A stretch of DNA of 59,063 nucleotides, counting the filler, from Sphacelaria rigidula (lineage: Eukaryota): the NCBI GenBank assembly GCA_964200075.2. It is 2 parts of 2 records of this genome, joined end to end, with 100 filler letters (N's around TTAATTAATTAA, not from the genome) between each part and the next. Parts side by side here need not be neighbours in the genome. Positions count along the whole stretch, not along the records: positions 1 to 29,501 come from CAXNAA020000079.1; 1 more part is not named here. One strand, 5' to 3'. Positions 3,856 to 31,744 of this stretch are shown here, in pieces (position 1 is the first letter of the stretch; each line of letters begins with the position of its first letter). The translations under genes were made by a program, and so were the position numbers. Under the pieces are notes generated by a model, which worked only from the letters and a program-made list of their open reading frames with translations, made no database searches and was not told the origin of the DNA.

Positions 3856-3929
3856 GCACCCCCAAAGCGCGTTGGATGAAAATCGATCAACAAGCTTGAC
3901 CCATAGAAAACGACAAAACGACGAGTAAG

Positions 3930-7712: not shown

Positions 7713-7749
7713 GGGGAATTCTTCCGCTGATCGATGCCGCTAATCCCAC

Positions 7750-8831
7750 TTGACGCCACGGCTGCGCAAGCTTCGCAGGTGGAGACGCCCCGGCAGAATC
7801 AAATGGCACCGCCGGTGGGTACGCCCCCTAGCCAGCAAGCCAAGAATTTGGCGAACCTCCAACCAGCGCATCAACTGCTGCCGGTGTCGCCGCCGGCGCC
7901 ACCGCCGGCGCCGGCGGAGTGTTCGACTCTGTAGAAGCCGATCCTACCTCCACCACCCGTTGCAGAGCAGCAGCACCTACGGCGGCGCCGGACCCAGAGC
8001 CAGGCCCATGCTGACGCCGCTGCCCTTACTGCTGCTGCAGGTTCTGCTGCTGCTGGGGCTGCTGCTGAGGGCTCGCCGGCGACCCTCCATCGCCGGAGGA
8101 TCCGCCGCCGCCACCACCACCCCGATACCTCGTCTTTTGCCCTTGTGCTACAATGCTGATGGCGCGCGGCACTAGACTGCCCAGACTCTCCACCGGAAGA
8201 CGTTGGGCAATCACGCGCGTAATGGCCGACCTGGTCACAGCGCTGGCAAGCAATACTCGCGGCGCGACCGGCCGATTTCGAGCCATGGTTGCGCAAAGAT
8301 TTCGGCGAAGAGGTGGACGACTAGCCTAAAACCTCTATTTGCCGTCACTCCTTGGCCTCGGCCACGACAGTGCTGATCACCAGGTATGGGTCGGCCTTCC
8401 AGTTTGTTTGGTGCCGCCGCTTGATAAGCACGGCTTGCTTGAATTTTTCCGGTCCCAACCCTTCAACCGAAGCCATAGTGATTACTGCTGCCGGGCCGGG
8501 AATAAACTCACCATCGGGGGAACGATATACTAGTTCTACGATCAGGTTTTCCGTGCAGTACTTCTCCAAATTTGCCAGGATGGGCTCCACCCGCTCCAAC
8601 ATCGTTATCGCCCGAGAATTCATGGCGACAGTGTTCGCCACGGCCGCGGACGCTTGGGTCAGATCTACCTCAGCGCCCGCCGCATGCCCAGCACGCTTTT
8701 TGATCGCTGCAACCAACTACGGCGGGGTGATATTGCCCTCATCATGTTCCAAACAAGCGAACACTCTATGTACGTGAGTTGCACTTGTTGAGCCATAGTC
8801 ACCACCTGATGCCGCACGGCACCCCCCGCAT
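7750..8831 (-). pseudogene. gag: Gypsy gag fragment with CCHC zinc knuckle
   Basis: CQRCDQVGHYARDC (CX2CX4HX4C) at about 8210-8251, followed by G/Q-rich low-complexity sequence. Upstream broken frames continue to the satellite boundary. Confidence 0.85.
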
Positions 8832-11800
8832 TACTCCAACACACCCAGGGAGGTACAATATCCGCTGTGAGCTGATATGGGATATTTTGCAAAAGCGAAA
8901 ATTTGTTCGGGACAGCGAATATCTCTTGAAACTGCAAACATATCATCGGGAGAAAGCCGCCAAACGTACTCTAACACACCCAGGAAGGTTCAATATCCGC
9001 TGGGAGCTGAAATGATATACTTTGCAGAAGCGAACATTTCTTTGAATAGCGGATAACGTCGGGAGAAAGCCGCCGAACGTACTCTAACACACCCTGGGAG
9101 GTACAATATCCGCTGAGAGCTGAAATGGGATATTTTGCATGAGCAATTATTTCTTGGAACGGCGACTTTTCCTTGAAACAACGAATATTATGGGGACAAA
9201 GCCGCCAAACGTACTTTAACACACCCAGGGAGATACATTGCAAAAGCAAGCATTTCTTTGAACAGCGAATATCATCGGGAGAGTGCCAGCAAACGCACTC
9301 GAACACACCCTGGGAGGTACAATATCCGCTGAGAGCAAAACTGGGATATTTTTCAAAAGCGAATGTTTCGTGGAACAGCGAATATTCCTTGGAACAACAA
9401 ATATTGAGGGGAGAAAGCCGCCAAACGTACTCTAACACACCCAGGGAGGTACAATATCGGCTGTGAGCTGAACTGGGATACTTTCCAAAAGCGAACATTT
9501 GTTTGGAACAGCGAGCATTTGTTGGAACCGCAAATATCATGGAGAGAACGGCGCCAAAGGTACTCGAACACACCCGGGGGGGTACAGTATCCGCTGAGGG
9601 CTCATATGGGATATTTTGCGACAGCGAATATTTCTTGGAACAACGAATATCTGTTGGTACAGCGACTATCAAGGGGATAAAACCGAGAAACGTACTGTGA
9701 CACACCTAGGGAGCTACAATATCCACTGTGAGCTGATATGGGATATTCGACATGAGCGAATGTTTCTTGGAACAGCGGATGTTTCTTGGCACAGCGAATA
9801 TCATCGGGAGAAAGCCGGCAAACGTACTCTGGCACACCCAGGGAGGTACGATATCCGCATTGGGCAGATATGGAATATTTTGCAAAAGTGAATATTTGTA
9901 GGAACAGCGAATATTTGTAGGAACAACGTATATTTGTTGGTTCAGCGTATATCAAGGGGATAAAACCAAGAGCCGTACTCTGACACACCCAGGGAGGTAC
10001 AATATCTCCTGTGAGCTGATATGAGATATTTTGTAAAAGCGAATATTTCTTGGAACAACATATATTTTTGGAACAGCGATGAACAAGGGGATAAATCCGA
10101 GAAACGTACTCTGACACATCTAGGGAGCTACAATGTTCGCTGTGAGCTGATGTGATATATTTTGCATGAGCCTATGTTTCTTGCAACAGCGAATATTTCT
10201 TGGAACAGCGAATATCATCCGGGAAAAGCCGGCAAACGTACTCTGGCACTCCCAGGGAGGTACGATATCCGCTGTGAGCTGATATGCGATATTTGCAAAA
10301 GCGACTATTTCTTGGAACAGCAAATATTTGTTAGTACAGCGATTATCAAGGGGATAAAACGGAGAAACGTACCCTGACACACCTAGGGAGCCACAATATC
10401 CGCTGGGAGCTGATATGGGACATTTTGCATGAGCGCATGTTTCTTGGAACAGCCAATACTTCTTGAAACAGCGAATATCATCGCGAAAAAGCCGAAAAAC
10501 GTACTCTGGCACACCCAGGGAGGATCAATTTTCGCGAAAAGCTGATATGGGATATTTTGCAAAAGCGAATATTTGTTGGTACAGCGACTATCAAGGGGAT
10601 AAAACCGAGAAACGTGCTCTGACACACCTAGGGAGCTACAATATCCGCTGTGAGCTGCTGTGGAATACTTTGCATGAGCGAGTATTTCTTGGAACAGCGA
10701 ATGTTTCTTGGAACAGCGATATCATCGGGAGAAAGCCGGCAAATGTACTCTGGCACTCCCAGGGAGGTACAATATCCGCATTGGGCTGATATGAGATATT
10801 TTGCAAAAGCGAATATTTGTTGGAACAGCGAATATTTGTTGGTCCAGCGAATATCAAGGGGATAAAACCGAGAAACGTACCCTGACACAGCTAGGGAGCT
10901 ACAACATCTGCTGTGAGCTGCTATGGGATTTTTTTCAGAAGCGAATGTTTCTTGGAACAGCGAATATCATCGGGAAAAAGCCGCAAAAAAAACTCTGACA
11001 CACTCAGGGAGGTTCAATTCCCGCGAAGAGCTGAAGTGGAATATTTTGCAAAAGCGAATATATCTTATAGCAACGAATGTCTGTTGGTACAGCGATATTA
11101 TCAAGGGGATAAAACCGAGAAACGTACTCTGACACACCCAGGGAGGTTCAATTCCCGCGGGAAGCTGAAGTGGGATATTTTGCAAAAGCGAGAATTTCTT
11201 GGAACGACGGATATTTGTTAGTACAGCGTCTATCAAGGGGATAAAACCGAGAAACGTACTCTGACACTCCTAGGGAGCTACGATATCCGCTGTGAGCAGA
11301 TGTGTAAAATTTACCATAAGCGAATGTTTCTTGGAGCAGCGCATGTTTCCTGGAACAGCGAATATCATCGGGATGAGGCCGCAAAACGTACTCCGACACA
11401 GCTAGGGAGCTACGACATCCGCTGTCAGCTGAGATGAGATATTCAACATGGGCGAATATTTCTTGGAACAACGGGGATTTGTTGGTACAGCGAATATCAA
11501 GCGAATAAAACCGAGAAACGTACTCCGACACAGCTAGGGAGCTACGATGTCCGCTGTGAGCTGATATTAGATGTTCTGCATGGGCGAATATTCGTTGGAA
11601 CAGCGAATATTTGTTGGAACAACGGATATTTGTTGGTACAGCGAATATCAAGCGAATTAAACCGAGGAACGTACTCCGACACACCTCGAGAGCTACATTA
11701 TCCGCTGTAAGCTGATATGGGACATTCAACATGAGCAAATGTTTCTTGGAACAGCGATTATCAAGGGGATAACACGGAGAACCGTACTCCGACGCAGCTA

Positions 11801-14800
11801 GGGAGTTACAATATTCGCTGGGAGCTGATATGTAAAATGGAACATAAGCGGATGTTTTCTAGAACAGCGCATGTTTCTTGGAACAGCGAATATCATCGGG
11901 ACGAAGCCACCAAAAGTACTTTGGCACACCCAGGGAGGTACGATATCCGCTGTCAGCTCATATGAGATAATCTGCATCGGCGAATATTTCTTGGAACAAC
12001 GGGGATTTGTTGGTACAGCGAATATGAAGCGGAAACAACCGAGAAACGTACTCCGACACACCTCGGGAGCTACGATATCCGCTGTGAGCTGATATGGGAT
12101 ATTCAACATGAGCGAATGTTTTTTGGAACATCGCCTGTTTGTTGGGACAGCAAATATCATCGGGTTGGGCCTGCAAAACGTACTCTGGCACACCCAGGGA
12201 GGTACGATATCCGCTGTAGGCTGATATGGTATATTCAACATGAGCGAATATTTCTTGGGACAGCGGATATCATCGGGATTGACCTGCAAAACGTACTCTG
12301 GCACACCCAGGGAGGTACGATATCCGCTGTGGGCTGATATGAGATATTGTGCATGGGCGAATAGTCCTTGGAACAGGGAATATTTGGTGGAACAACGCAT
12401 ATTTGATGGTTCAGCGTATATCAACGGGATAAAACCGCGAAACGTACTCCGACACCCCTAGGGAGCTACGATATCCGCTACGAGCTGATATGGGATATTC
12501 AACATGAGCGAGTGTTTCTTGGAACAGCGCATGTTTCTTGGAACAGCGCATGTTTCTTGGAACAGCGAATATCAAGGGGATACAACCGAGAAAAGTACTC
12601 TGGCACACCCTGGGAGGTACGATATTCGCTGTAGGCTGATATGAGATATTATGTACGGGCTAATATTTCAATGGAACAGCGAATATGGTTGGAACATCGA
12701 ATGTTTGTTGGTACAGCGAATATTGAGGGGATAAGCCGAAAAACGTACTCCGACACATCTAGGGAGCTACAATATTCGCTGTGAGCTGATATGGGATATT
12801 CAACATGAGCGAATGTTTAAGGAACATCGCTTGCTTCCTGGAACAGCGAATATCATCGGGATGGACCTGCAAAACGTACTCTGGCACACCCAGGGAGGTA
12901 CGATATCCGCTGTGGGCTGATATGAGATAGTTTGCATGGGCGAATATTTCTTGGAACAGCGAATATTTGGTGGAACAACGCATATTTGTTGGTTCAGCGT
13001 ATATCAACGGGATAAAACCGAGGAACGTACTCCGACACCCCTAGGGAGCTACGATATCCGCTGTAGGCTGATATGGGATATTCTGCATGAAAGAATGCTT
13101 CTTGGAACATCGCATGTTTCTTGGAACAGCGTATATCATCGGGATGGACCTGCAAAACGTACCCAGGCACAACCATGGAGCTACAAAATCCGCTGTTGGC
13201 TGATGAAAGATATTCTGTATGAGCGAATATTTCTTGGAACAGCGGAAATGTGTTTGAACAACGGATATTTGTTGGTTCAGCATATATCACTGGGATGAAA
13301 CCGAGGAACGTACTCTGACACCCATAGGCAGCTACGATATCCGCTGTGAGCTTATATGAGATATTTTGCATGGTTCAAATATTTCTTGTAACAGCGGATA
13401 TTTCTCGGAACAACGGATATTTCTTGGTTCAGCGTATATTATTGGAACGAAGCCGTGAAACGTACTTTGACACCCCTAGGGAGCTACGATATTCGCTGGG
13501 AGCTTATATGGGATATTCAACATGAGCGCATGTTTATTGGAATGGCGTATGTCCTCGGGATGGACCTGCAAAACGTACTCTGGCACACCCAGCGAGGTAC
13601 GACATCCGCTGTAGGCTGATATGAGATATTGTGCATGGGCGTATATTTCTTGGAACAGCGAATATTTGTTGGAACAACGGATATTTGTTGGTTCAGCGTA
13701 TATCAATGGGATAAAACCGCGAAACGTACTCCGACACCCCAAGGAAGCTACGATATCCGCTGTGAGGTGATATGGGACAACCAACATTAGCAATTGTTTC
13801 TTCAAACAGCGCATGTTTCTTGGAAGCGCGTATATCGTCAAGATGGACCCGCAAAACGTACTCTGGCACAGCCAGGGAGATACGATATATGCTGTAGGCT
13901 GATATGAGACAGCGTGCATGAGCGAAAATTTCTCGGAACAGCGTATATTTGGTGGAACAACGGATATTTTTTTGGTTCAGCGTATATCAATGGGATGAAA
14001 CCGAGGAACGTACTCCGGCACCCATAGGGAGGTACGATCTCCGCTGTGAGCTGATATGGGATATTCTGCATGAGCGAACGTTTCTTGAAAAGCGCATGTT
14101 TCTTGGAACAGCGTTTATCATCGGGATGGACCTGCGAAACGTACTCTGGCACACCCAGATAGGTACGATATCCGCTGTAGGCTTATATGATATATTTTGC
14201 ATGGGCGAAGATTTCTCGGAACAGCGAATATTTGGTGGAACAATGGATATTCGTTGGTTCAGCGTATATCGATGGGATGAATCCGCGAAACGTACTCCGA
14301 CACCCCTAGGGAGCTACGATATCCGCTGTGAGCTGATATGGGATATTCTGCATGAGCGAATGTTTTTTGGAACATCGCATGTTTCTTGGATCAGTGTGTA
14401 TCATCGGGATGGACCTGCGGAACGCACTTTGGCACAGCCAGGAAGGTACGATATCCGCTGTAGGGTTAGGGTTAGGGTTAGGGTTAGGGTTACCCTAACC
14501 CTAACCCTAACCCTAACCTCAGCGTATATCAATGGGATGAAACCGAGGAACGTACTCCGATATCCCTAGGGAGCTACGATATCCGCTGTGAGCTGATATG
14601 GGATATTCTGCATGAGCGAATGCTTTTCGGAACATCCCATGTTTCTTGGAACAGAGTATATCATCGGGATGGACCTGCAAAACGTACTTTGGCACACCAA
14701 GGGAGGTATAATATCCGCTGTCGTCTGATATGAGATATTTTGCATGGGCGAAAATTTCTCGGAACAGCGAATATTTGGTGGAACAACGGATATTTGTTGG

Positions 14801-17800
14801 TTCAGCGTATGTCAATGGGATGAAACCCAGGAACGTACTCCGACACCCCTAGGGAGCTACGATATCCGCTGTGAGCTGATATGGGATATTCTGCATGAGC
14901 GAATGCTTCTTGGAACATCCCATGTTTCTTGGAACAGAGTATATCATCGGAATGGACCTGCAAAACGTACTCTGGCACAGCCAGGAAGGTACGATATCCG
15001 CTGTAGGCTGATATGAGATATTTTGCATGGGCGAATATTTCTTGGAACAGCGAATATTTGGTGGAACAACGGATATTTGTTGGTTCAGCGTATATCAATG
15101 GGATAAAACCGAGGAACGTACTCTGACACCCCTAGAGAGCCACGGTATCCGCTGTGACCTGATATTGGATATTCTGCATGAGCGAATGCTTCTTGGAACA
15201 TGGCATGTTTCTTGGAACAGAGTATATCATCGGGATGGACCTGCAAAACGTACTCTGGCACACCAAGGGAGGTACGATATCCGCTGTAGGCTGATATGAG
15301 ATATTTTGCATGGGCGAAAATTTCTCGGAACAGCGACTATTTGGTGGAACAACGGATATTTGTTCGTTCAGCGTATATCAATGGGATAAAACCGAGAAAC
15401 GTACTCCGACACCCCTAGGAAGCTACGATATCCGCTGTGAGCTGATATGGGATATTCTGCAAGAGCGAATGTTTCTTGGAACATCGCATGTTTCTTGGAA
15501 CAGCGTATATCATCGGGATGGACCTGCAAAACGTACTCTGGCACAGCCAGGGAGATACGATATCTGCTGTAGGCTGATATGAGATAGCGTGCATGAGCGA
15601 ACATTTCTCGGAACAGCGAATATTTGGTGGAACAACGGATATTTTTTGTCTCAGCGTATATCAATGGGATAAGATCGAGGAACGTACTCTGACACCCCTA
15701 GGGAGCTACGATATCCGCTGTGAGCTGATATGGGATATTCTGCATGAGCGAATGCTTCTTGGAACATCCCATGTTTTTTGGTACAGAGAATATCATCGGG
15801 ATGGACCTGCAAAACGTACTTCGGCACACCAAGGGAGGTACGATATCCGCTGTAGGCTGATATGAGATATTTTGCACGGGCGAAAATTTCTCGGAACAGC
15901 GAATATTTGGTGGAACAACGGATATTCGATGGTTCAGCGTATATCAATGGGATAATACCGAGGAACGTTCTCTGACACCCCTAGGAAGCTACGATATCCG
16001 CTGTGAGCTGATATGGGATATTCTGCAGAAGCGAATGTTTCTTGGAACATCGTATGTTTCTTGGAACAGCGTATATCATCGGGATGGACCTGCAAAACGT
16101 ACTCTGGCACACCCAGGAAGATGCGATATCCGCTGTAGGCTGATATGAGATAGTGTTCATGGGCGAATGTTTCTAGGAACAGCGAATATTTGGTGGAATA
16201 ACGGATATTTGTTGGTTCAGCGTATATCAATGCGACAACACCGAGGAACATACTCCGACACCCCTAGGGAGGTACGATATCCGCTGTGAGCTGATATGAG
16301 ATATTCTGCATGGGCGAATGTTTCTTGGAACATCGCATGTTCCTTGGAACAGCGTTTATCATCGGGATGAACCTGCGGAACGTACTCTGGCACAGCCAGG
16401 GAGTTACGATATCCGCTGTAGGCTGATATGAGGTTTTTTGCAAGGGCGAAAATTTCTCGGAACAGCGACTATTTGGTGGAACAACGGATATTTGTTGGTT
16501 TAGCGTATATCAATGGGATAAAACCGAGAAACGTACTCCGACACCCCTAGGAAGCTACGATATCCGCTGTGAGCTGATATGGGATATTCTGCAAGAGCGA
16601 ATGTTTCTTGGAACATCGCATGTTTCCTGGAACAGCGTATATCATCGGGATGGACCGGCAAAACGTACTCTGGCACAGCCAGGGAGATACGATATCTGCT
16701 GTAGGCTGATATGAGATAGCGTGCATGAGCGAAAATTTCTCGGAACAGCGAATATTTGGTGGAACAACGGATATTTTTTGTCTCAGCGTATATCAATGGG
16801 ATAAAACCGAGGAACGTACTCTGACACTCCTAGGGAGCTACGATATCCGCTGTAGGCTGATATGAGATATTCTGCATGAGCGAATGTTTCTTGACACAGC
16901 GAATATTTGGTGGAACAATGGATATTCGTTGGTTTAGCGTATACCAATGAGATAAAACCGAGGAACATACTTCGACACCCCTAGGGAGCTACGATATCCG
17001 CTGTGAGCTGATATGGGATATTCTGCATGAGCGAATGCTTCTTGGAATATCGCATGTTTCTTGGAACAGCGTATATCATCGGGATTGACGTGCGGAACGC
17101 ACTCTGACACACCCACGGAGATGCGACATCCGCTGTAGGCTGATATGAGATGTTTGGCATGGGCGAATATATTTTGGAATAGCGAATATTCAGTGGGACA
17201 ACGGATACTTGAGGGTTCAACGTATATCAATGGGATAAAACCGAGGAACGTACTCCGACACCCCTAGGGAGCTACGATATCCGCTGTGACCTGATATGGG
17301 ATATTCTGCATGAGCGAATGTTTCTTGGAACATCGCATGTCTCTTCGAACAGCGTTAACAACGGGATGGATCGCAAAAAGTACTCTGGCACACCAAGGAA
17401 GGTACGATATCCGCTGTAGGCTGATATGAGATAATGCGCATGAGCGGAAGTTTTTTGAAACAGCGAATATTTGGTGGAACAACGGATATTCGTTGGTTCA
17501 GCGTATACCAAAGAGATAAAACCGAGGAACGAACTCTGACACCCGTAGGGAGGTACGATATCCGCTGTGAGCTGATATGGGATATTCTGCATGAGCGAAT
17601 GCTTCTTGGAACATCGCATGTTTCTTGGATCAGCGTTTATCATCGGGATGGACCTGAGGAACGCACTTTGACACACCCAGGGAGATGCGATATCCGCTGC
17701 CGGCTGATATGAGATAGTTTGCATGGGCGAGTGTTTTTTGGAACAGCGAATATTTGGTGGAACAACGGATATTTGTTGTTTCGGCGTAGATCAATGAGAT

Positions 17801-20800
17801 AAAACCGAGGAACGTACTCTGACACCCCGAGGGAGGTACGATATCCGCTGTGAGCTGATATGGGATATTCTGCATGAGCGAATGTTTCTTGGAACAGCGC
17901 ATGTTTCTCGGAACAGCGTATATCATCGGGATGGATCTGCAAAACGTACTCTGGCACACCCAGGGAGGTACGATATCCGCTGTAGGCTGATATGAGATAG
18001 TGTGCATGGGCGAATATTTCTTGGAACAGCGAATATTCGGTGGAACAACGGATATTCGTTGGTTCAGCGTACATCAATGGGATGAAACCGAGGGACGTAC
18101 TCTGACACCCCTAGGGAGCCACGGTATCCGCTGTGACCCAATATGAGATATTCTGCATGAGCGAATGCTTCTTGGAACATCGCATGTTTCTTGGAACAGC
18201 GTATATCATCGGGATGGACGTGCAAAACGTATCCTGGCACACCAAGTGAGGTACGATATCCGCTGAAGGCTGATATGAGATATTTTGCATGTGCGAAAAT
18301 TTCTCGGAACAGCGAATATTTGGTGGAACAACGGATACTTTTTTGGTTCAGCGTATATCAATGGGATGAAACCGAGGAACGTTCTCCGACACTCCTAGGA
18401 AGCTACGATATCCGCTATGAGCTGATATGGGATATTCTGCAAGAGCGAATGTTTCTTGGAACATCGCATGTTTCTTGGAACAGCGTAAATCATCGGATTG
18501 GACCTGCTGAACGTACTCTGGCACAGCCAGGGAGGTACGATATCCGCTGTAGGCTGATATGAGATAGCGTGCATGAGCGAAAATTTCCCGGAACAGCGAA
18601 TATTTGGTGGAACAACGGATACTTTTTTGGTTCAGCGTAGATCAATGGGATAAAACCGAGGAACGTACTCTGACACCCCTAGGGAGTTACGGTATCCGCG
18701 GTGACCTGATTTGGGATATTCTGCATGAGCGAATGTTTCTTGGAACAGCGAATATTTGGTGGAACAACGGATCTTCGTTGGTACAGCGCATACCGAAGAG
18801 ATAAAACCGAGGAACGAACTCCGACACCCCTAGGGAGCTACGATATCCGCTGTGAGCTGATATGGGATATTCTGCATGAGCGAATGTGTCTTGGAACATC
18901 GCATGTTTCTTCGAACAGAGTATATCATCGGGATGGATCGCAAAACGTACTCTGGCACACCAAGGAAGGTACGATATCCGCTGTAGGCTGATATGAGATA
19001 GTGTGCATGAGCGGAAGTATCTTGAAACAGCGAATATTTGGTGGGACAACGGATATTCGTTGGTTCAGCGTATACCAATGGGATAAAACCGAGAAACGTA
19101 CTCTGACACCCCTAGGGAGCTACGATATCCGCTGTGAGCTGATATGGGACATTCTGCATGAGCGAATGCTTCTTGGAACATCGTATGTTTCTTGGAACAG
19201 CGTTTATCATCGGGATGGACCTGCGGAACGCACTTTGACACACCCAGGGAGATGCGATATCCGCTGTAGGCTGATGTGAGATAGTTTGCATGGGCGAGTG
19301 TTTTTTGGAACAGCGAATATTTGGTGGAACAACGAATATTTGTTGATTCAGCGTAGATCAATGGGATAGCACCGAGGAACGTACTCTGACACCCCTAGGG
19401 AGTTACGGTATCCGCTGTGAGCTGATTTGGGATATTCTGCATGAGCGAATGTTTCTTGGAACAGTGCATGTTTCTTGGAACAGCGTATATCATCGGGATG
19501 GATCGCAAAACGTACTTTGGCACACCCAGGGAGGTACGATATCCGCTGTAGGCTTGTATGAGATAGCGTGCATGGGCGAATATTTCTTAGAACAGCGAAT
19601 ATTCGGTGGAACAACGGATATTTTTTGGTTCAGCGTATATCAATGGGATAAAACCGAGGAACGTAGTCTGACACCCCTACGGGGCTACGGTATCCGCCGT
19701 GAGCTGATATGGGATATTCTGCATGAGCGAATGCTTCTTGGAACATCGCATGTTTCTCGGAACAGCGTATATCATCGGGATGGACCTTCAAAACGTACTC
19801 TGGCACACCAAGGGAGGTACGATATCCGCTGTAGGCTGATATGAGATATTTTGCATTGGCGAAAATTTCTCGGAACAGCGAATATTTGGTGGAACAACGG
19901 ATATTTGTTAGTTCAGCGTATATCAATGGGATAAAACCGAGGAACGTATTCCGACACCCCTAGGAAGCTACGACATCCGCTGTGAGCTGATGTGGGATAT
20001 TCTGCGAGAGCGAATGTTTCTTGGAACATCGCATGTTTCTTGGAACAGCGTAAATCATCGGGATGGACCTGCAGAACGTACTCTGGCACAGCCAGGGAGA
20101 TACGATATCCGCTGTAGGTTGATATGAGATAGCGTGCATGAGGGAAAATTTCTCGGAACAGCCAATATTTGGTGGAACAACGGATGTTTTTTTGGTTCAG
20201 CGTATATCAATGGGATAAAACCGAGGAACGTACTCTGACATCCCTAGGGAGGTACGATATCCGCTGTAGGCTGATATTAGATATTTTGCATGTGCGAAAA
20301 TTTCTCGGAACAGCGAATGTTTGGTGGAACAACGGTTTTTTTTTTGGTTCAGCGTATATCAATGGGATAAAGCCGAGGAACGTACTCCGACACCCCCAGG
20401 AAGCTACGATAGCCGCTATGAGCTGATATGGGATATTCTGCAAAAGCGAATGCTTCGTGGAACATCGCATGTTCCTTGGAACAGCGTAAGTCATCGGGAT
20501 GGACCTGCAGAACGTACTCTGGCACAGCCAGGGAGATACGATATCCGCTGTAGGTTGATATGAGATAGCGTGCATGAGCGGAAGTTTCTCGGAACAGCGA
20601 ATATTTGGTGGAACAACGGATGTTTTCTTGGTTCAGCGTATATCAATGGGATAAAACCGAGGAACGTACTCTGACATCCCTAGGGAGCTACGATATCCGC
20701 TGTAGGCTGATATGGGATATTCTGCATGAGCGAATGTTTCTTGGAACAGCGAATATTTGGTGGAATAACGGATATTCGTTGGTTGAGCGTTTACCAAAGA

Positions 20801-23800
20801 GATAAAACCGAGGAACGTACTCCGACACCCCTAGGGAGCTACGATATCCGCTGTGACCTGATATGGGATATTCTGCATGAGCGAATGTTTCTTGGAACAT
20901 CGAATATTTGGTGGAACAACGGATGTTCGTCGGTTCAGCGTATACCAAAGAGATAAAACCGAGGAACGTACTCCGACACCCCTAGGGAGCTACGATATCC
21001 GCCGTGAGCTGATATGGGATATTCTGCATGAGCGAATGTTTCTTGGAACATCGCATGTTTCTTGGAACAGCGTAAATCATCGGGATGGACCTGCGGAACG
21101 CACTCTGACACACCCAGGGAGATGCGATATCCGCTGTAGGTTGATATGAGATAGCGTGCATGAGCGAAAAATTCTCGGAACAGCGAATATTTGGTGGAAC
21201 AACGGATCTTCGTTGGTTCAGCGTATATCAATGGGATAAAACCGAGGAACGTACTCTGACATCCCTAGGGAGCTACGATATCCGCTGTGAGCTGATATGG
21301 GATATTCTGCATGAGCGAATGTTTCTTGGAACAGCGAATATTTGGTGGAACAACGGATCTTCGTTGGTTCAGCGTATACCAATGAGATATAACCGAGGAA
21401 CATACTCCGACACCCCCAGGGAGCTACGGTATCCGCTGTGAGCTGATATGGGATATTCTGCATGAGCGAATGTTTCTTGGAACATCGCATGTTTCTTCGA
21501 ACAGAGTATATCATCGGGATGGATCGCAAAACGTACTCTGGCACACCAAGGAAGGTACGACATCCGCTGTAGGCTGATATGAGATAGTGTGCATGAGCGG
21601 AAGTATCTTGAAACAGCGAATATTTGGTGGAACAACGGATATTCGTTGGTTCAGCGTATACCGAAGAGATAAAACCGAGGAACGTACTCTGACACCCCTA
21701 GGAAGCTACGATATCCGCTGTGACCTGATATGAGATATTCTGCATGAGCGAATGCTTCTTGGAACATCGCATGTTTCTTGGAACAGCGTTTATCATCGGG
21801 ATGGACCTGCGGAACGCACTTTTACACACCCAGGGAGATGCGATATCCGCTGCAGGCTGATATGAGATAGTTTGCATGTGCGAAAATGTCTCGGAACAGC
21901 GAATATTTGGTGGAACAACGAATATATTTTTGGTTCAGCCTACATCAATGGGATGAAACCGAGGAACGTACTCCGACACCCCTAGGGAGCTACGATATCC
22001 GCTATGAGCTGATATGGGATATTCTGCAAGAGCGAATGTATCTTGGAACATCGCATGTTTCTCGGAACAGCGTAAGTCATCGGGATGGACCTGCAGAACG
22101 TACTCTGGCACAGCCAGGGAGATACGATATCCGCTGTAGGTTTATATGAGATAGCGTGCATGAGCGAAAATTTCTCGGAACAGCGAATATTTGGTGGAAC
22201 AACGGATGTTTTTTTGGTTCAGCGTATATCAATGGGATAAAACCGAGGAACGTACTCCGACATCCCTAGGGAGCTACGATATCCGCTGTAGGCTGATATG
22301 GGATATACTGCAGGAGCGAATGTTTCTTGGAACAGCGAATATTTGGTGGAACAACGGATATTCGTTGGTTCAGCGTATACCAAAAAAAAAAAACCGAGGA
22401 ACGTACTCCGAAACCCCTAGGGAGCTACGATATCCGCCGTGACCTGATATGGGATATTCTGCATGAGCGAATGTTTCTTGAAACATCGAATATTTGGTGG
22501 AACAACGGATATTCGTCGGTTCAGCGTATACCAAAGAGATAAAACCGAGGAACGTACTCCGACACCCCGAGGGAGCTACGATATCCGCCGTGAACCGAGG
22601 AACGTACTCCGACACCCCTAGGGAGCTACGATATCCGCCGTGAGCTGATATGGGATATTCTGCATGAGCGAATGTTTCTTGGAACATCCCAATTTCTTGG
22701 AACAGCGTATCTCATCGGGATGGACCTGCGGAACGCACTCTGACACACCCAGGGAGATGCGATATCCGCTGTAGGTTGATATGAGATAGCGTGCATGAGC
22801 GAAAATTTCTCGGAACAGCGAATATTTGGTGGAACAACGGATGTTTTTTTGGTTCAGCGTATATCAATGGGATGAAACCGAGGAACGTACTCTGACATCC
22901 CTAGGGAGTTACGATATCCGCTGTGAGCTGATATGGGATATACTGCATGAGCGAATGTTTCTTGGAACAGCGAATATTTGGTGGAACAACGGATCTTCGC
23001 TGGTGCAGCGTATACCAATGAGATAGAACCGAGGAACATACTCCGACACCCCCAGGGAGCTACGGTATCCGCTGTGAGCTGATATGGGATATTCTGCATG
23101 AGCGAATGTTTCTTGGAACATCGCATGTTTATTCGAACAGAGTATATCATCGGGATGGATCGCAAAACGTACTCTGGCACAGCAAGGAAGGTACGATATC
23201 CGCTGTAGGCTGATATGAGATTGTGTGCATGAGCGGAGGTTTCTTGGAACAGCGAATATTTGGTGGAACAACGGATATTCGTTGGTTCAACGTATACCAA
23301 TGAGATATAACCGAGGAACATACTCCGACACCCCCAGGGAGCTACGATATCCGCTGTGACCTGATATGGGATATTCTGCATGAGCGAATGCTTCTTGGAA
23401 CATCGCATGTTTCTTCGAACAGCGTATATCATCGGGATGGACGTGCGAAACGTACTCTGGCACACCAAGTGAGGTACGATATCCGCTGTAGGCTGATATG
23501 AGATAGTTTGCATGTGCGAACATTTCTCGGAACAGCGAATATTTGGTGGAACAACGGATACTTTTTTGGTTCAGCGTATATCAATGGGATAAAACCGAGG
23601 AACGTACTCCGACACCCCTAGGAAGCTACGATATCCGCTATGAGCTGATATGGGATATTCTGCAAGAGCGAATGTTTCTTGGAACATCGCATGTTTCTTG
23701 GAACAGCGTATCTCATCGGATTGGACCTGCAGAACGTACTCTGGCACAGCCAGGGAGATACGATATCCGCTGTAGGCTGATATGAGATAGCGTGCATGAG

Positions 23801-26800
23801 CGAAAATTTCTCGGAACAGCGAATATTTGGTGGAACAACGGATGTTTTTTTGGTTCAGCGTAGATCAATGGGATAAATCCGAGGAACGTACTCTGACATC
23901 CCTAGGGAGCTACGGTATCCGCTGTGAGCTGATATGGGATATTCTGCATGAGCGAATGTTTCTGGAACAGCGAATATTTGGTGGAACAACGGATCTTCGT
24001 TGGTTCAGCGCATACCAATGAGATATAACCGAGGAACATACTCCGACACCCCCAGGGAGCTACGGTATCCGGCGTGACCTGATATGGGATATTCTGCATG
24101 AGCGAATGTTTCTTGGAACATCGCATGTTTATTGGAACAGCGTATATCGTCGGGATGGACCTGCGAAACGTACTCTGGCACAGCCAGGGAGATACGATAT
24201 CCGCTGTAGGCTGATATGAGATATTGTGCATGGGCGAATATTGTTTGGAACAGCGGATATTTGTTGGAATAACGGATATTCGTTGGTTCAGCGTATATCA
24301 ATGGAATGAAACCGAGGAACGTACTCAGACAACCCTAGGGAGCTACGATATCCGCTGTGAGATGATCTGGGATAGTCTGTATGAGCGAATGTTTCTTGGA
24401 ACATCGCATGTTTCTTGGAACAGCGTTTGTCATCGGGATGGACCTGCGGAACGCACTTTGACACACCCAGGGAGATGCGATATCCGATGCAGGCTGATAT
24501 GAGATAGTTTGCATGGGCGAGTGTTTTTTGGAACAGCGATTATTTGGTGGAACAACGGATATTTGTTGTTTCAGCGTAGATCAATGGGATAAAACCGAGG
24601 AACGTATTCTGACACCCCTAGGGAGTTACGGTATCCGCTGTGAGCTGATTTGGGATATTCTGCATGAGCGAATGCTTCTTGGAACAGCGCATGTTTCCTG
24701 GAACAGCGTATATCATCGGGATGGATCGCAAAACGTACTCTGGCACACCCAGGGAGGTACGATATCCGCTGTAGGCTGATATGACATAGTGTGCATGGGC
24801 GAATATTTCATAGAACAGCGAATATTTGGTAGAACAACGGATATTTGTTGGTTCAGCGTACATCAATGGGATAAAACCGAGGAACGTAGTCTGACACCCC
24901 CACGGGGCTACGGTATCCGCCGTGAGCTGATATGTGTTATTCTGCATGAGCGAATGCTTCTTGGAACAGCGCATGTTTCTTGGAACAGAGTATATCATCG
25001 GGATGGACCTGCAAAACGTACTCTGGCACACCGAAAGAGGTACGATATCCGCTGTAGGCTGATATGAGATATTTTGCATTGTCGAAAAATTCTCGGAACA
25101 GCGACTATTTGGTGGAACAACGGATATATTTGTTGGTTCAGCGTATATCAATGGGATAAAACCGAGGAACGTACTCCGACACCCCTAGGGAGCTACGATA
25201 TCCGCTATGAGCTGATATGGGATATTCTGCAAGAGCGAATGTTTCTTGGAACATCCCATGTTTCTTGGAACAGCGTAAATCATCGGATTGGACCTGCAGA
25301 ACGTACTATGGCACAGCCAGGGAGATACGATATCCGCTGTAGGTTGATATGAGATAGCGTGCATGAGCGAAAATTTCTCGGAACAGCGAATATTTGGTGG
25401 AACAACGGATGTTTTTTTGGTTCAGCGTATATCAATGGGATAAAACCGAGAAACGTACTCTGACACCCCTAGGGAGCTACGATATATGCTGTGAGCTGAT
25501 ATGGGATAATCAATATGAGCGAATGATTCTTGGAACAGCGCATGTTTCTTGGAACAGCGAATGTAATCGGGATGGATCGCAAAAGTCACTCTGGCAAACC
25601 CAGGGATATGCGATATCCGCTGTAGGCTGATATGAGATAGCGTGCATGAGCGAAAATTGCTCGGAACAGCGAATATTTGGTGGAACAACGGATATTTGTT
25701 GGTTCAACGTAAATCAATGGGATGGAACCGAGGAACGTACTCTGACACCCCTAGGGAGCTACGATATCCGCTGTGAGCTGATTTGGGATATTCCGCATGA
25801 GCGAATGTTTCTTGGAACAGCGAATATTTGGTGGAACAACGGATATTTGTTGTTCCAGCGTATACTAATGAGATAAAACCGAGGAACATACTCCGACACC
25901 CCTAGGGAGCTACGATATCCGCTGTGAGCTGATATGGGATATTCTGCATGGACGAATGTTTCTTGGAACATCGCATGTTTCTTGGAACAGCGTATCTCAT
26001 CGGGATGGACCTGCGGAACGTACTCTGACACACCCAGGGAGATGCAATATCCCCTGTAGGCTGATATGAGATAGTTTGCATGGGCGAATATTTCTTGAAA
26101 CAGCGAATATTTAGTGGAACAACGAGTATTCGTTAGTTCAGCGTATATCAATGAAATAAAGGCCGAGGAACGTTCTCCGACACCCCTGGGAGCTACGATA
26201 TCCGCTGTAAGCTGATATGGGATATTCTGCATGAGCGAATGCTTCTTGGAACAGCGCATGTTTCTTGGAACAGCGTATATCATCGGGATGGATCGAAAAA
26301 CGTACTCTGGCACACCCAGGGAGGTACGATATCCGCTGTAGGCTGACATGAGATATTTTGCATGAGCGGGAGTTTCTTGAAACAGCGGATATTTGGTGGA
26401 ACAACGGATATTCGTTGGTTCAGCGTATATCAATGGGATAAAACCGAGGAACGTACTCCGACACCCCTAGGGAGCTACGATATCTGCTGTCAGCTGATCT
26501 GGGATATTCTGCATGAGCGAATGTTTCTTGGAACATCGCATGTTTCTTGAAACAGCGAATATCATCGGGATGGACCTGCGAAACGTACTCTGGCACAGCC
26601 AGGGAGATACGATATCCGCTGTAGGCTGATATGAGATGGTGTGCATGAGCGGAAACTTCTCGGAACAGCGAATATTTGGTGGAACAACGGATATTCGTTG
26701 GTTCAGCGTGTACCAATGAGGTAAAACCGAGGAACGTACTCCGACACCCCTAGGGAGTTACGAAATCCGCTGTGAGCTGATATGGGATATTCTGCATGAG

Positions 26801-29442
26801 CGAATGTTTCTTGGAACATCGCATGTTTCTTCGAACAGCGTATATCATCGGGATGGATCGCAAAACGTACTCTGGCACACCCAGGGAGATGCGATATCCG
26901 CTGTAGGCTGATATGAGATATTTTGCATGGGCGGAGGTTTCTTGGAACAGCGAATATTTGGTGGAACAATGGATATTTCTTGGTTCAGCGTATATCGATG
27001 GGATTAAACCGAGGAACGTACTCCGACCCCCCTAGGGAGCTACTATATCCGCTGTGAGCTCATGTGGGATATTCAACATGAGCGAATGTTTATTGGAACA
27101 GCGTATATCGTCGGGATGGACCTGCGAAACGTACTCTGGCACAGCCAGGGAGATACGATTTCCGCTGTAGGCTGATATGAGATATTGTGCATGGGCGAAT
27201 ATTGTTTGGAACAGCGGATATTTGTTGGAATAACGGATATTCGTTGGTTCAGCGTATATCAATGGGATGAAACCGAGGAACGTACTCAGACAACCCTAGG
27301 GAGCGACGATATCCGCTGTGTGCTGATTTGGGATATTCTGCATGAGCGAATGCTTCTTGGAACATCGCATGTTTCTTGGAACAGCGTTTATCATCGGGAT
27401 GGACCTGCGGAACGTACTCTGGCATACCCAGGGAGATACGATGTCCGCTGTAGGCTGATATAAGATATATTTTGCATGGGCGAATATTTCTTGGAATGGC
27501 GATTATTTCTTGGAACAACGGATATTCGTTGGTTCAGCGTATATCAATGGGATGAAACCGAGGAACGTACTCCGACACCCCTAGGGAGCTACGATATCCG
27601 CTGTGAGCTGATATGGGATATTCAACATGAGCGAATGTTTTCTGGAACATCGCACGTTTCTTGGAACAGCGTATATCATCGGCTGTGAGCTGATATGGGA
27701 TTTTTGCATAAGTGAAAGTTTCTTGGTACAGCGATTATCAAGGGGATAAAACCGAGAAACGTACTCTGACACACCTAGGAAGCTACAATATCCGGTGTGA
27801 GCTGATATGGGATATTCTGCATGAGCGAGTGTGTCTTCGGACAACGAATGTTCGTCGGAACAGCGAATATCAAGGAGACGGAACTGAGAAACGTACTCCG
27901 ACACACCTAGGGTGGTAAATATCCGTCGTGAGCTGATATGAGATATTTTGTAAAAGCGAATGTTCCTCCGAACAACGACTATTTCTTGATACAGCGATTA
28001 TCAAGTGGATAAAACCGAGAAACGTACTCTGACACACCTAGGGAGCTACAATATCCGCCGTGAGCTGATATGAGATATTTTGCATGAGCGAATGTTTCTT
28101 GGGACAGCGAATGTTTTTTGACCAGCGATTATCACGGGGATAAAATCGAGAAACGTGCTCTGCCACACGTAGGGAGGTACAATATCCACTGTGAGCTGAT
28201 ATGGGATATTCTGCATGGGTGAATGTTTCTCGGAACAACGAATGTTCGTCGGAACAGCAAATATCATCAGGGTGAAGCCGCAAAACGTACTCTGGCACAT
28301 CCAGGGAGGTACGATATCCGCTGTGGGCTGATATGATATATTCTGCAAAAGCGAATGGTTCTTGGAACCGCGCATGTTTCTTGGAACAGCGAATATCATC
28401 GGGATGAAGCCGCCAAACGTACTCTAACACACCCAGGGAGGTACAATATCCCCTGTGAGCTGAAATGAATTATTTTGCGAAAGCGAATATCTTGGGGAAC
28501 AGCAAATGTGAAGTGTAGTAAGCCGTCGAAAGTACTCTCACACATCCAGGGAGGAACAATACCCGTTGTGAGCTGAAATGGGATATCCGGCAGAAGCGAA
28601 CATTTGTTGGAACGGCGAATCTGTTTCGAACAGCGAATATAATGGGGACAAAGTCGTCGAACGAACTTTGACACACCCGGTAGGTACAGTATCCGCTGTG
28701 AGCTGAAATGGGACATTATGCAGAAGCGAATAGTTTTTGAAAAAACGACTATTTCTTGGAACATCAAAGAATTATGAAGGGTAGAGAGCCGCCAAACGAT
28801 CTCTGACACACCCGAGGACGTGTAATATCCGCTGTGAGCTGAGATGTGATATCTTGCAAAAGCGGATATTTCTTGGAATAGCGAATATTCCTTGAAACAT
28901 CAAATATCGAGGGTATGAAGCCGCCGAATGAACTCTAATGCTCCCAGGAACGTACGATAACCGCTGAGAGCTGAAATGGGATATTTTGCAGAAGCGAATA
29001 TTTCTTGGAATAGCGAAAATCAGTGGGAAAAAGATGGAAAACATACTCCAACACACCCAGGTAGGTTCAATATCCGCTGTGAGCTGAAACTAGATATTTT
29101 GCAGAAGTGAATATTGCTGGGAATAGCGAATGTCAAGGGGATTGAGCCGCCCAACGATCTCTAACACACTTAGGGAGGTACAGTACCCGCTGTAAGCTAA
29201 AATGGGATATTATGCGGAAGCGATTATTGCTGGGAACAGCGAATATCATCGGGATGAAGCCGCCAAACGTACTCTAACACACCCAGGGAGGCACAATATC
29301 CGCCGTGAGCTGAGATGGGATATTTTGCAGATGCGAATATTTCTTGGAACAGCGAAAACAGTTCCGAACAGCGATTATCATGGGGACAAAGTCTTCGAAC
29401 GTACTCTAACACACCCAGGGAGGTACAATATCCGCTGTAAGC
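8832..29442 (+). repeat. 20.6-kb tandem satellite array (roughly 145-150 monomers of 113/132/151 bp; 283-bp dimer in the core)
   Basis: Monomer starts: 8967 to 9080 (113), 9080 to 9212 (132), 14551 to 14683 (132), 14683 to 14834 (151), 20665 to 20816 (151), 29157 to 29270 (113), 29270 to 29402 (132). The ORF track repeats at a 283-bp period (14519/14802; 15368/15651/15934). One orientation throughout, with non-satellite sequence at both ends. Confidence 0.98.
14461..14518. repeat. Interstitial head-to-head telomeric repeat TAGGG(TTAGGG)4TTA-(CCCTAA)4CC
   Basis: Read directly from the sequence; embedded inside one satellite monomer. Confidence 0.98.
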
Positions 29443-29501
29443 AGCCGATCATCTGAGTTGAGGATGGTGCTTTTCATTGAGGATGAGAACCCGGAGGATT
29501 G

Positions 29502-29601
29502 NNNNNNNNNNNNNNNNNNNNNNNNNNNNNNNNNNNNNNNNNNNNTTAATTAATTAANNNNNNNNNNNNNNNNNNNNNNNNNNNNNNNNNNNNNNNNNNN
29601 N
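29502..29601. other. Assembly gap: 44 N + TTAATTAATTAA linker + 44 N
   Basis: A 100-bp artificial spacer with an all-frame stop linker; contiguity across it is not guaranteed. Confidence 0.97.
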
Positions 29602-31134: not shown

Positions 31135-31604
31135 GGCTACTTCTTATGTATCGAAAAGTGAAAGTTGTTGAAAAGTGCTTTTTTGGCCCTTCTCCGTCGT
31201 TTTTGTCCCCCCAAAAGGGCTAGGCGGATGTGGACACCTTGGAATGACTTGCTCTACTCGCTGAGACCGTTCCAGAGCACCTTTGCGTTTTCTGTAGGTC
31301 ACAGTTTCGTTCTTGGCCGAAAATACATTTTCAATAACAAACGGTCAAGTTATCGAAAAACAGTGGGAGAACTGCCATTTTTTTAATAACTCGACCGTTT
31401 GTTATTGAAAATGCATTTTCGGCCAAGAACGAAACTGTGACCTACAGAAAACGCAAAGGTGCTCTGGAACGGTCTCAGCGAGTAGAGCAAGTCATTCCAA
31501 GGTGTCCACATCCGCCTAGCTCTCTTTTGGGGACAAGAACGACGTAGAAGGGCCAAAAAAGCACTTTTCAAAAACTTTTACTTTTCGATACATGAGAAGT
31601 AGCT
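31135..31604. mobile_element. Foldback MITE (about 220-bp inverted arms, short spacer), PIF/Harbinger/Tourist-like
   Basis: Arms are near-identical reverse complements, giving mirror ORFs 31165+ and 31571-. Starts TAA|GGCTAC and ends GTAGCT. A related copy at 58313 is also preceded by TAA. Confidence 0.85.
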
Positions 31605-31744
31605 GAAGTCCGGGAAAAAAATGAGAATCTGAAGCTGCTCACGTGATGTATCATATTTCCTTGGGTGCAGAAGGTCTTCCTGAAATTTCAAGAGTCGTCG
31701 AATTGGGCCGTGCGTGCAACATTTTGCGTGACGCTGCTGTATGT

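Follow-up and report, generated by a model that had tools for sequence, protein, structure and literature searches.

The 59,063-base stretch of DNA analysed here (the window) contains a 20.6-kb satellite array in which the same monomer variants recur at both ends, in nested order and in a single orientation, around a core of 283-bp dimers. Layers, divergence gradient, block duplications and flanks are observed; taken as a whole, they are probably best explained by layered growth from inside. The array itself is best viewed, with similar confidence, as an ordinary non-coding satellite lying between transposon remnants. The features are as follows:

3933-8794, − strand: decayed Ty3/Metaviridae retrotransposon, 5'-truncated at the array start (tblastn and Pfam)
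8832-29444, + strand: satellite array, about 150 monomers, 20.6 kb, uninterrupted (nhmmer and TRF)
8832-9600, + strand: outer left layer (L1), monomeric, with divergent 113- and 132-bp units (motifs, identity, tree)
9601-11300, + strand: second left layer (L2), two monomer types, most units 132 bp, alternating as an old dimer (clustering, identity)
11301-13900, + strand: third left layer (L3), transitional towards the core types, CAACATG variant (motif, clade)
13901-27000, + strand: core, 283-bp dimer (132 + 151) (monomer lengths, identity)
14461-14518, no strand assigned: telomere-type repeats arranged head to head, roughly 5 TTAGGG followed by roughly 4.5 CCCTAA (TRF, sequence, nhmmer)
17500-24800, + strand: youngest zone, 11-monomer higher-order period, about 1566-1636 bp (lag matching)
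22543-22643, + strand: 50-bp tandem micro-duplication within one monomer (TRF period 50, 2.0 copies, 98% matches)
27001-27700, + strand: third right layer (R3) (GATATTCAACATG; best left matches at 12290-13024)
27701-28400, + strand: second right layer (R2) (best left matches)
28401-29444, + strand: outer right layer (R1), divergent 113/132-bp units (best left matches)
29445-29501, no strand assigned: right flank, 57 bp, part of a very high-copy dispersed repeat (contig depth)
29502-29601, no strand assigned: spacer N44-TTAATTAATTAA-N44, 100 bp, 57 bp past the array end (sequence)

Mirrored layers in a single orientation

An nhmmer profile derived from 151-bp monomers gave 152 matches, all on the + strand and all within 8832-29444; no satellite match was found elsewhere in the window. 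A fuzzy anchor search yielded 148 matches on the + strand and 0 on the − strand. Hence, orientation is constant throughout the array, as the preliminary description had claimed. No inversion was detected within 8832-29444, and the telomere-type insert in the core is the only foreign insertion; TE remnants are present only outside both array ends. Each monomer consists of a stable 94-bp part plus one to three copies of a 19-bp sub-repeat, thus reaching 113, 132 or 151 bp, and TRF periods of 113, 132, 151, 263 and 283 are found in the array. Length classes are mirrored left to right: the 113-bp monomers (n = 11) are confined to the outer layers, and 151-bp monomers occupy the interior, occurring only within 9821-27411.

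It had also been claimed that diagnostic variants are nested at both ends, and the motif positions, confined to the two ends in nested order, bear this out. L1 carries GCCGCC...CTCTAACAC and GCTGAAATGGG; the latter is found only at 9119 and at 28572, 28702 and 28970. With up to one mismatch, GCCGCCAAACGTACTCTAACAC occurs only at 8956, 9069, 9201 and 9417 on the left and at 28409 and 29259 on the right, while ACACCTAGGGAGCTACAAT has five sites in 9702-12755 plus 27771 and 28034. All 11 sites of TACAATATCC fall in 8854-10768 or 27784-29424. Further inside, GATATTCAACATG marks L3 (11438, 12098, 12494, 12795, 13512) and R3 (27068, 27617). Two variants have wider distributions: TACGATATCC, with 74 sites spanning 9847-28310, and TTGGTGGAACAACGG, with 52 sites (up to one mismatch) spanning 11611-26958. 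The L2 monomers form the cluster string C-E-N-C-E-C-G-C-E-C-G. The layers are unequal in physical size, about 5 kb on the left versus about 2.4 kb on the right.

Left-right pairing was quantified on 144 of 150 monomer cores, leaving out six aberrant ones (8828, 9208, 14421, 22551, 22601, 29398). The identity matrix confirms the pairing: mean identity is 0.750 between L1 and R1, compared with 0.690 and 0.691 between these layers and the core, respectively. The corresponding values are 0.790 for L2-R2, 0.743 for L2-core and 0.778 for R2-core. All five L1 monomers have their best distant matches in R1, and all eight R1 monomers have their best left matches at 8963-9424. In R2, four of five monomers match best on the left at 9689, 9972 or 10366 (identity 0.81-0.93), and the fifth (28284) matches 12873; reciprocally, C-type units of L2 find their best distant matches among R2 monomers, again at 0.81-0.93. 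Even the first and last 41 bp of the array match at 95%. Among the 18 monomers of the right flank, distance from the right edge correlates with the distance of the best left-flank match from the left edge (Spearman rho 0.84), a value reached by none of 10,000 permutations, with a p of about 1e-4 that is optimistic because adjacent monomers are not independent.

Maximum-likelihood (ML) analysis also clusters left and right outer monomers: all L1 (5/5), all R1 (8/8) and 2 of 13 L2 monomers share one side of a branch (SH-aLRT 92). L3 and R3 are almost core-like by mean identity; their CAACATG subgroup is nonetheless a supported clade, with three L3, two R3 and two core monomers (SH-aLRT 96). The variants shared by the outer layers are not accounted for by CpG decay occurring in parallel, as CpG observed/expected is 0.97-1.21 across all layers.

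Divergence gradient and probable growth from inside

Identity to the nearest relative is 0.85 at the left edge, climbs to 0.97 at 20.8-22.3 kb and falls to 0.82 at the right edge. In consecutive 1.5-kb bins, the values are 0.854, 0.866, 0.901, 0.924, 0.958, 0.948, 0.960, 0.966, 0.974, 0.969, 0.965, 0.931, 0.919 and 0.817, a gradual change with no single step. Terminal branches of the ML tree are long for outer-layer monomers (0.12-0.19) and short for core monomers (0-0.05). The core had been described as homogeneous and alternating. Alternation of 132- and 151-bp units is indeed found in 76 of 91 adjacent pairs (132 bp, n = 40; 151 bp, n = 50; other, n = 2); homogeneity, however, is limited, with mean identities within the two monomer types of 0.896 and 0.880 and nearest-relative identities of 0.92-0.97. 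In the youngest zone, windows of 300 bp give matches of 0.84-0.96 when lagged by 1565-1636 bp, compared with 0.38-0.89 at about 283 bp. Segments 20957-22519 and 22593-24153 match at 94.2% (lag 1636 bp), and another interior block duplication, at a lag of 1132 bp, matches at 93.5%.

On both sides, the series runs from monomeric L1/R1 through the old dimer L2/R2 to the core dimer. Because the ML tree is unrooted, the polarity (outer layers older) rests on branch lengths and on this monomer-to-dimer series; we infer both the polarity and the exchange mechanism. A two-monomer unit would first have evolved within an old array of 113/132-bp monomers. Blocks of several monomers would then have been duplicated in tandem, time after time and close to the middle, multiplying variants of that dimer. 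The route may have been unequal exchange between sister chromatids or homologues, or duplication linked to replication. Each round would leave older copies on both sides, where homogenisation would be lost and divergence follow, so that a nested mirror pattern could arise without any change of orientation. The most recent rounds may have duplicated blocks of about 1.1-1.6 kb.

Satellite arrays are generally poorly homogenised at their borders under unequal exchange, an end effect that requires no centromere function. The divergent, ancestral-looking border monomers and the homogenised interior agree with it. Unlike in the general case, however, the borders pair left to right in at least three nested classes, an unusually legible record. 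A closer parallel is primate alpha satellite as described in the available part of bioRxiv 10.1101/2021.07.12.452052: mirrored layers share variants, divergence rises outwards, monomeric units lie outside and a higher-order repeat inside (here the 283-bp dimer and the 11-mer period of about 1.6 kb), and the youngest, latest-duplicated units are near the middle. The nested same-orientation sharing, the outward divergence and the passage from monomeric edges to a dimeric core thus support the layered-expansion pattern proposed earlier. Differences from alpha satellite, as far as that source describes it, are also evident: the array measures 20.6 kb rather than megabases, its core is merely 88-90% identical within type, its outer layers have no inversions or TE insertions, and it belongs to an unrelated lineage and another monomer family, for which the brown-algal literature makes kinetochore association unlikely.

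Telomere-type insert, array edges and alternative origins

The telomere-type repeats take the place of 74 bp in a 151-bp monomer, whose phase they preserve. The nhmmer match covering model positions 1-46 stops at 14466, and positions 122-151 restart at 14519; positions 47-121 of monomer 14421 are therefore replaced, while no interruption is seen in the A-type monomers on either side (14138 and 14681). Exact telomere hexamers thus stand in place of the ordinary sequence found in related empty copies, the 'empty site' being deduced from adjacent paralogous monomers and not from an orthologous locus. This head-to-head pair (14466-14516) is the only place in the window with runs of two or more telomere hexamers, and the array outside it has one TTAGGG and no CCCTAA. 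As monomer phase is kept, the insert appears to be an in-situ event rather than a chromosome end. Head-to-head short interstitial telomeric sequences inserted at double-strand breaks are described from vertebrates, where they make up 3 of 41 TERC-ITS loci and carry telomerase-RNA fragments, according to the part of PMC8537989 consulted. The insert resembles the head-to-head loci of that account in its few exact hexamers, two runs, internal site and loss of local sequence, and differs in having no extra fragment and an algal host. Its polarity is what would result if telomerase extended the two 3' ends of a single break.

At the right edge, the flank shows summed contig depths of 27,913-40,093 in the last bin in four of four runs, with several loose ends at 29457-29500. 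The design of the spacer that follows, precisely 100 bp long with stop codons in each of the six frames, points to an artificial join or gap; the sequence beyond must therefore be another piece. The preliminary description of the array as a complete record is correct in that both ends are present, with the reservation that the right flank extends for only 57 bp before the spacer.

That join invites the suspicion that part of the pattern is an assembly product, with real edge layers and a mis-assembled core (in length or order) or telomere insert. Alternative short joints inside the array appear in contigs of four of four runs, a loose end at 9597 is seen in three, the internal order of the 13-kb core is beyond the reach of contig data, and the insert lacks read support, since 14454-14527 was skipped as a repeat in the read comparison. 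We consider this explanation unlikely. In three runs of 'organism A', edge pieces of 180-807 bp match without differences on both sides and have a contig depth like that of single-copy sequence (1-2.6% differences in the run from a second study), and the joint sides comprise only 18-29 letters, as repeats would give. A chimeric or fold-back read is an unlikely source of the insert because monomer phase and A/B alternation are kept and the flanks are not inverted. A genuine but simpler history would be a single step, in which a block amplified elsewhere, by rolling-circle copying of an excised circle or by seeding from another array, was inserted once in the middle of the old array. Old sequence would likewise remain on both sides in the same orientation, and seeding between arrays is documented for alpha satellite in the part of bioRxiv 10.1101/2021.07.12.452052 consulted. 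The graded transition, through three or more nested layers and with identity changing smoothly instead of at a single sharp boundary, argues against it, as do the descent of core types from L2/R2-L3/R3 types in the same tree and the differing size and age of internal block duplications. Insertion in one step is thus very unlikely, and layered growth from inside is the preferred reading.

The adjacent retrotransposon and the chromosomal setting

The preliminary description had placed a chromovirus beside the array. A Ty3 element does adjoin it, but as a single decayed, 5'-truncated copy in which Pfam detects RVT_1, Integrase_H2C2 and zf-CCHC and no chromodomain. By tblastn, residues 74-1661 of the 1661-aa relative P0001 align over 8779-3933 with frame breaks, and P0006 extends the match to 8794; among named relatives, the protein is closest to one from Ectocarpus sp. 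(61% identity). The earlier assignment to a probable brown alga is plausible though weakly founded: besides this relative, one run containing the sequence carries the label algae metagenome, and the telomere-type repeat is TTAGGG. There is no second copy in the 59-kb window, as 0 of 112 tblastn hits of 29 related proteins fall outside 3900-8850. Intact relatives have a single Gag-Pol of about 1650 aa with a weak C-terminal chromodomain; Chromo matches were sub-threshold (E 7e-5 to 0.07) in all five scanned, every one under the Pfam cut-off. No ORF of at least 110 aa in either flank reaches the Pfam cut-off for a host-gene domain.

The telomere-type repeats inside the array, and the end of the sequence piece 57 bp beyond it, would suit a telomere-associated satellite near a chromosome end, with the internal repeats recording end healing. 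Chromosome ends of Ectocarpus have a specific satellite and an adjoining TE-rich zone of about 70 kb, so that the link between a brown-algal tandem array and telomere-type repeats has a precedent in the available part of PMC11541908. The Ectocarpus satellite described there, however, has monomers of about 98 bp with three TTAGGG each and adjoins the terminal telomere, whereas here monomers are 113-151 bp, the motif is nearly absent outside an insert that keeps monomer phase, and no terminal telomere tract occurs in the window. A subtelomeric location is therefore unlikely. Even less probable is the centromeric or pericentromeric role previously judged plausible, in which the young core would be, or flank, the kinetochore site and kinetochore-linked amplification would drive the layering. 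In its favour, the mirrored layers and the progression from monomers to higher-order units match the alpha-satellite description, the flanks lack recognisable host-gene domains, and a Ty3/Metaviridae element whose relatives have a single long Gag-Pol and sub-threshold Chromo recalls the centromere-specific ECR-1 as published (1699 aa, chromodomain). The layered pattern, however, is not centromere-specific, since layering also occurs outside centromeres; on the basis of evolutionary patterns in non-centromeric arrays, the Discussion of bioRxiv 10.1101/2021.07.12.452052 considers neutral expansion feasible. As reported in the parts of PMC11541908 and bioRxiv 10.64898/2025.12.07.692804 consulted, putative centromeres of Ectocarpus sp. 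7 and other surveyed brown algae are formed by centrophilic LTR retrotransposons in short clusters; most of them, though not all, conspicuously lack satellite DNA, and tandem repeats make up 3.5% of putative Ectocarpus centromeres versus 6.7% elsewhere. Those centromeres are ECR/Copia clusters of tens of kilobases; here, one truncated, decayed copy (3933-8794), itself without a detected chromodomain, lies beside a 20-kb satellite. The dimer shows no marked dyad symmetry (DNA fold z = −1.38; 9 of 100 shuffles fold equally well). We conclude that the array is probably not centromeric and most likely represents neutral, repeat-rich DNA of heterochromatin type rather than a kinetochore site.

For brown algae no CENH3 antibodies are available (bioRxiv 10.64898/2025.12.07.692804). 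Very unlikely is the reading that makes the array a satellite-based centromere, or the pericentromere immediately beside one, of a brown-alga-like stramenopile and the flanking Ty3 an ECR-type centrophilic retrotransposon. If true, a centromeric reading would provide the first case against satellite-free, retrotransposon-only centromeres in this lineage, and would imply an independent origin of kinetochore-linked layered expansion. The telomere-type insert, if it arose as its polarity suggests, would preserve the trace of telomerase action at the two ends of a single break within a satellite, outside vertebrates.

Monomer make-up and mirror-symmetric layering

The satellite array lies at 8832-29444, with both borders present within 20.6 kb. 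Overlapping periods of 113, 132, 151, 263 and 283 bp were detected by Tandem Repeats Finder at approximately 8.9-29.4 kb. A profile built from 151-bp units produced 152 matches, all on the + strand and confined to 8832-29444, with no monomer elsewhere in the window, and a fuzzy anchor search produced 148 matches on the + strand and 0 on the − strand. Each monomer comprises a stable 94-bp part (28 bp upstream and 66 bp downstream of the anchor AACGTACTC) followed by a 19-bp sub-repeat. As the latter is present in one to three copies, monomers of 113, 132 and 151 bp are formed. Among 149 anchor-to-anchor lengths, 70 were around 132 bp, 62 around 151 bp and 11 around 113 bp, and six had other values. 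The first 41 bp of the array (8832-8872) and the last 41 bp (29402-29442) correspond to one and the same monomer segment, with 95% identity, and the array thus spans an integer number of periods and a further 41 bp. This end match involves the best-conserved part of the monomer and may mean little. Rfam families were absent across the whole window, and a 30-nt degenerate monomer pattern found 0 matches among public metagenome contigs. Four such contigs harbored one match each to a 21-nt monomer pattern, and were discarded as chance matches because the monomer profile covers just ~25-28 nt in them.

The preliminary description had proposed that diagnostic variants occur in nested order at both ends of the array, defining outer, second and third layers (L1, L2 and L3 on the left; R1, R2 and R3 on the right) around a core. 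Every one of the diagnostic motifs was located where it had been placed:

Diagnostic motifs of the array layers
8956-9417 (left) and 28409-29259 (right): one outer-layer motif, found nowhere else
9119 (left) and 28572-28970 (right): another outer-layer motif, found nowhere else
9702-12755; 27771 and 28034: second-layer motif
11438-13512; 27068 and 27617: GATATTCAACATG
Outer 2 kb of either side only: TACAATATCC
Array interior, which they fill: TACGATATCC and TTGGTGGAACAACGG

Sequence relatedness was examined on 150 monomers by aligning their 94-bp stable parts. Removal of six aberrant ones (two junction units, a truncated monomer at 9208, the monomer at 14421 that telomere repeats interrupt, and both halves of a 50-bp duplication) left 144. 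Mean identity between L1 and R1 was 0.750, compared with 0.690 and 0.691 to the core; the L2-R2 value was 0.790, compared with 0.743 and 0.778. The best distant match of L1 monomers fell in R1 in five out of five cases, and all eight R1 monomers had their best left match at 8963-9424. Depth from the edge correlated with that of the best match on the other side (rho 0.84 from right to left, 0.79 from left to right), and the right-to-left value was equalled by none of 10,000 permutations, although the resulting p is optimistic because neighbouring monomers are not independent.

In a maximum-likelihood tree based on 94 columns, obtained by a quick search and with many unresolved forks, a branch with SH-aLRT 92 set apart all five L1 and all eight R1 monomers together with two L2 monomers. 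Eight L2 and four R2 monomers were basal in the group containing the core B-type clade (SH-aLRT 95), B being one of two alternating monomer types, A and B. Another clade (SH-aLRT 96) was made of three L3, two R3 and two core monomers. The outer layers therefore pair up both in the tree and in the identity comparison, and monomer length classes are also mirrored between left and right. Altogether, motif positions, identities, correlations, tree and length classes bear out the mirror-symmetric layering, with layers of unequal thickness (~5 kb on the left, ~2.4 kb on the right).

Parts of the stretch were also found in independent sequence, as contigs from three runs labelled 'organism A' and from one run of another study labelled algae metagenome. 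Organism-A contigs of 180-807 bp matched left and right outer layers, in most cases without any difference, and their depths (~52-68, 21-41 and 9-17) look single-copy. In the other study's run, the same outer-layer pieces were present with 1-2.6% differences. Matches in all four runs indicate that the edge layers are real and common to a second strain or individual. This support covers the edge layers and not the order of the core, where summed depths are not copy numbers and were left unused. Alternative contig joints within the array were dismissed as repeat noise, as their sides are just 18-29 letters long. At position 9597, the L1/L2 boundary, a contig found in the three organism-A runs matches the array and then continues with ~240 unrelated letters; such a loose end could be a second copy, a structural variant or an allele with a transposable element insertion.

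The innermost array and its probable mode of growth

The core (~13901-27000) had been described as homogeneous, with alternating 132-bp and 151-bp units. Homogeneity turned out to be limited: the two monomer types had mean within-type identities of 0.896 and 0.880, and the mean between them was 0.745. Strict alternation was found in 76 of 91 adjacent pairs, and is interrupted by runs of 151-mers at ~20-24 kb. An in-register duplication of 1132 bp was detected at 14.5-16.9 kb. Identity to the nearest relative is 0.854 at the left edge, climbs smoothly to 0.974 at 20.8-22.3 kb, and has dropped to 0.817 by the right edge.

The core had been described as a young 283-bp dimer; by the lag comparison, the dimer is not the newest unit of amplification. 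In the youngest zone (17.5-24.5 kb), 300-bp windows scored 0.84-0.96 at lags of 1565-1636 bp, versus 0.38-0.89 at 283 bp. Hence, the innermost array (17500-24800) has a higher-order period of ~1566-1636 bp, equivalent to 11 monomers, which is stronger than the dimer period and identifies a ~1.6-kb block of 11 monomers as the latest amplified unit. A 50-bp tandem micro-duplication, 98% identical, is found at 22543-22643 in a monomer of the second block copy, and brings the block lag, otherwise 1586 bp, to 1636 bp.

A graded, nested pattern of this kind would result from tandem duplications recurring inside a linear array: new blocks would arise and homogenise in the middle, while border copies would drop out and drift. 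Such interior duplication is the most likely explanation for end branches that are long outside and short inside, for the series of units (monomer, old dimer, young dimer, 11-mer) and for the visible block duplications; together with the nested gradient, these traits support the layered growth initially proposed. Insertion of a ready-made block in a single event fits less well, as it is at odds with the smooth identity gradient. Parallel CpG decay as the origin of the common outer variants was ruled out since CpG observed/expected is 0.97-1.21, around 1, in every layer; the same range includes the flanks, and no sign of methylation-driven CpG loss was detected in the flanks or in any layer. 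A general border effect of unequal exchange has long been established. The array adds a clear instance of a type of structure already known. Its growth pattern matches the layered expansion described for alpha satellite in excerpts of bioRxiv 10.1101/2021.07.12.452052, where a passage of the Discussion considers neutral expansion feasible, given evolutionary patterns in non-centromeric arrays.

Putative telomere-repeat insert and array flanks

Features within and beside the array
3933-8794, − strand: degraded Ty3/Metaviridae element, interrupted by several frame breaks, with Pfam reverse transcriptase, RNase H-like, integrase zinc-binding and zinc-knuckle domains
14461-14518: putative head-to-head telomere insert, ~5 TTAGGG followed by ~4.5 CCCTAA
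29502-29601: 100-bp spacer, N44-TTAATTAATTAA-N44

The putative insert takes the place of model positions 47-121 (~74 bp) in a single 151-bp monomer. Both monomer phase and A/B alternation are kept across it, without inversion of the flanks; neither an unrelated end-to-end fusion nor a fold-back read would preserve the phase. G-strand repeats extend each 3' end at the gap. Judging from sequence, this polarity would be expected if telomerase had worked on the two ends of a single double-strand break and these had then been rejoined. A two-sided mechanism of this type is proposed for three of 41 vertebrate loci in the consulted portion of PMC8537989, and the insert would extend break repair by two-ended telomerase action to an alga.

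On the left, the Ty3 copy aligns with residues 74-1661 of a 1661-aa relative, and thus lacks the gag start (the first ~70 residues), the 5' UTR and the 5' LTR where the array begins. Its nearest named relative, from Ectocarpus sp. CCAP 1310/34, shows 61% identity. Intact relatives encode a single Gag-Pol of ~1650 aa (1647-1672 aa in the five scanned), in which Chromo matches were sub-threshold only (13.5-23.1 bits, cut-off 25.1); a chromodomain was not detected in the copy of the window. None of 112 tblastn hits obtained with 29 related proteins fell outside 3900-8850, hence no second Ty3 copy was found. A 41-bp minisatellite with ~80% matches, located downstream of the Ty3 coding region at 3011-3356 (8.4 copies) and 2350-2436 (2.1 copies), possibly lies within the 3' end or LTR of the element. 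A sub-threshold Integrase_H2C2 match on the + strand at 483-887 (23.3 bits, cut-off 25.5) hints at a second, older retroelement remnant. The window starts with a 60-bp tandem pair with a 42-nt inverted repeat (1-149).

On the right, 57 bp (29445-29501) separate the array from the spacer. Across all four runs, summed contig depth over this flank was ~28,000-40,000 and several different continuations were present; the flank is therefore part of a very high-copy dispersed repeat, which would also account for the end of the sequence piece at this point. Its translations, 19 residues long and of low power, showed no likeness by eye to the N-termini of Ty3 relatives, the part missing from the element. 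A literature search on the spacer motif brought up nothing that bears on assemblies. By its design, the spacer looks like an artificial six-frame-stop join; 29602-59063 is thus another sequence piece, and adjacency to the array is not implied. In these 29.5 kb, no Pfam match above cut-off was found among the 27 ORFs scanned, out of 40 listed ORFs of at least 110 aa, or in five start-codon versions. Sub-threshold matches involved Gene66 (19.6 bits, cut-off 20.1) and DUF92 (22.6 bits, cut-off 27.5), and the DUF92-like ORF had no homologues at E ≤ 0.001.

Relation to brown-algal centromeres and subtelomeres

Excerpts of PMC11541908 describe the centromeres of Ectocarpus sp. 7 as clusters of ECR, centromere-specific LTR retrotransposons, that span 6.8-153.9 kb (median 38.6 kb), with tandem repeats making up 3.5% of centromeres and 6.7% of the sequence elsewhere. 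A 2025 preprint (bioRxiv 10.64898/2025.12.07.692804), in the portion considered here, extends the ECR-type picture to additional brown algae and to a sister lineage, and portrays satellite DNA as conspicuously absent from most centromeres. Unlike such clusters, the window harbors one truncated, decayed Ty3 copy and a 20-kb satellite, and notable dyad symmetry is absent in the dimer (DNA self-folding z = −1.38). On present knowledge, the centromeric role suggested at the outset is unsupported, and we consider it highly improbable. A subtelomeric satellite is a weak candidate too: the Ectocarpus one, as outlined in PMC11541908, carries three TTAGGG per ~98-bp monomer, whereas a single TTAGGG occurs in the array outside the insert, and the window contains no terminal telomere tract.

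If the satellite family did mark centromeres, the current view of brown-algal centromeres would have to be revised. Mirror layering alone should not be taken as a centromere signature. The 20.6 kb of the array hold a whole satellite history, from monomeric relics to old dimer, young dimer and 11-monomer unit, and provide a small, convenient case for the growth and homogenisation of tandem arrays outside animals and land plants.
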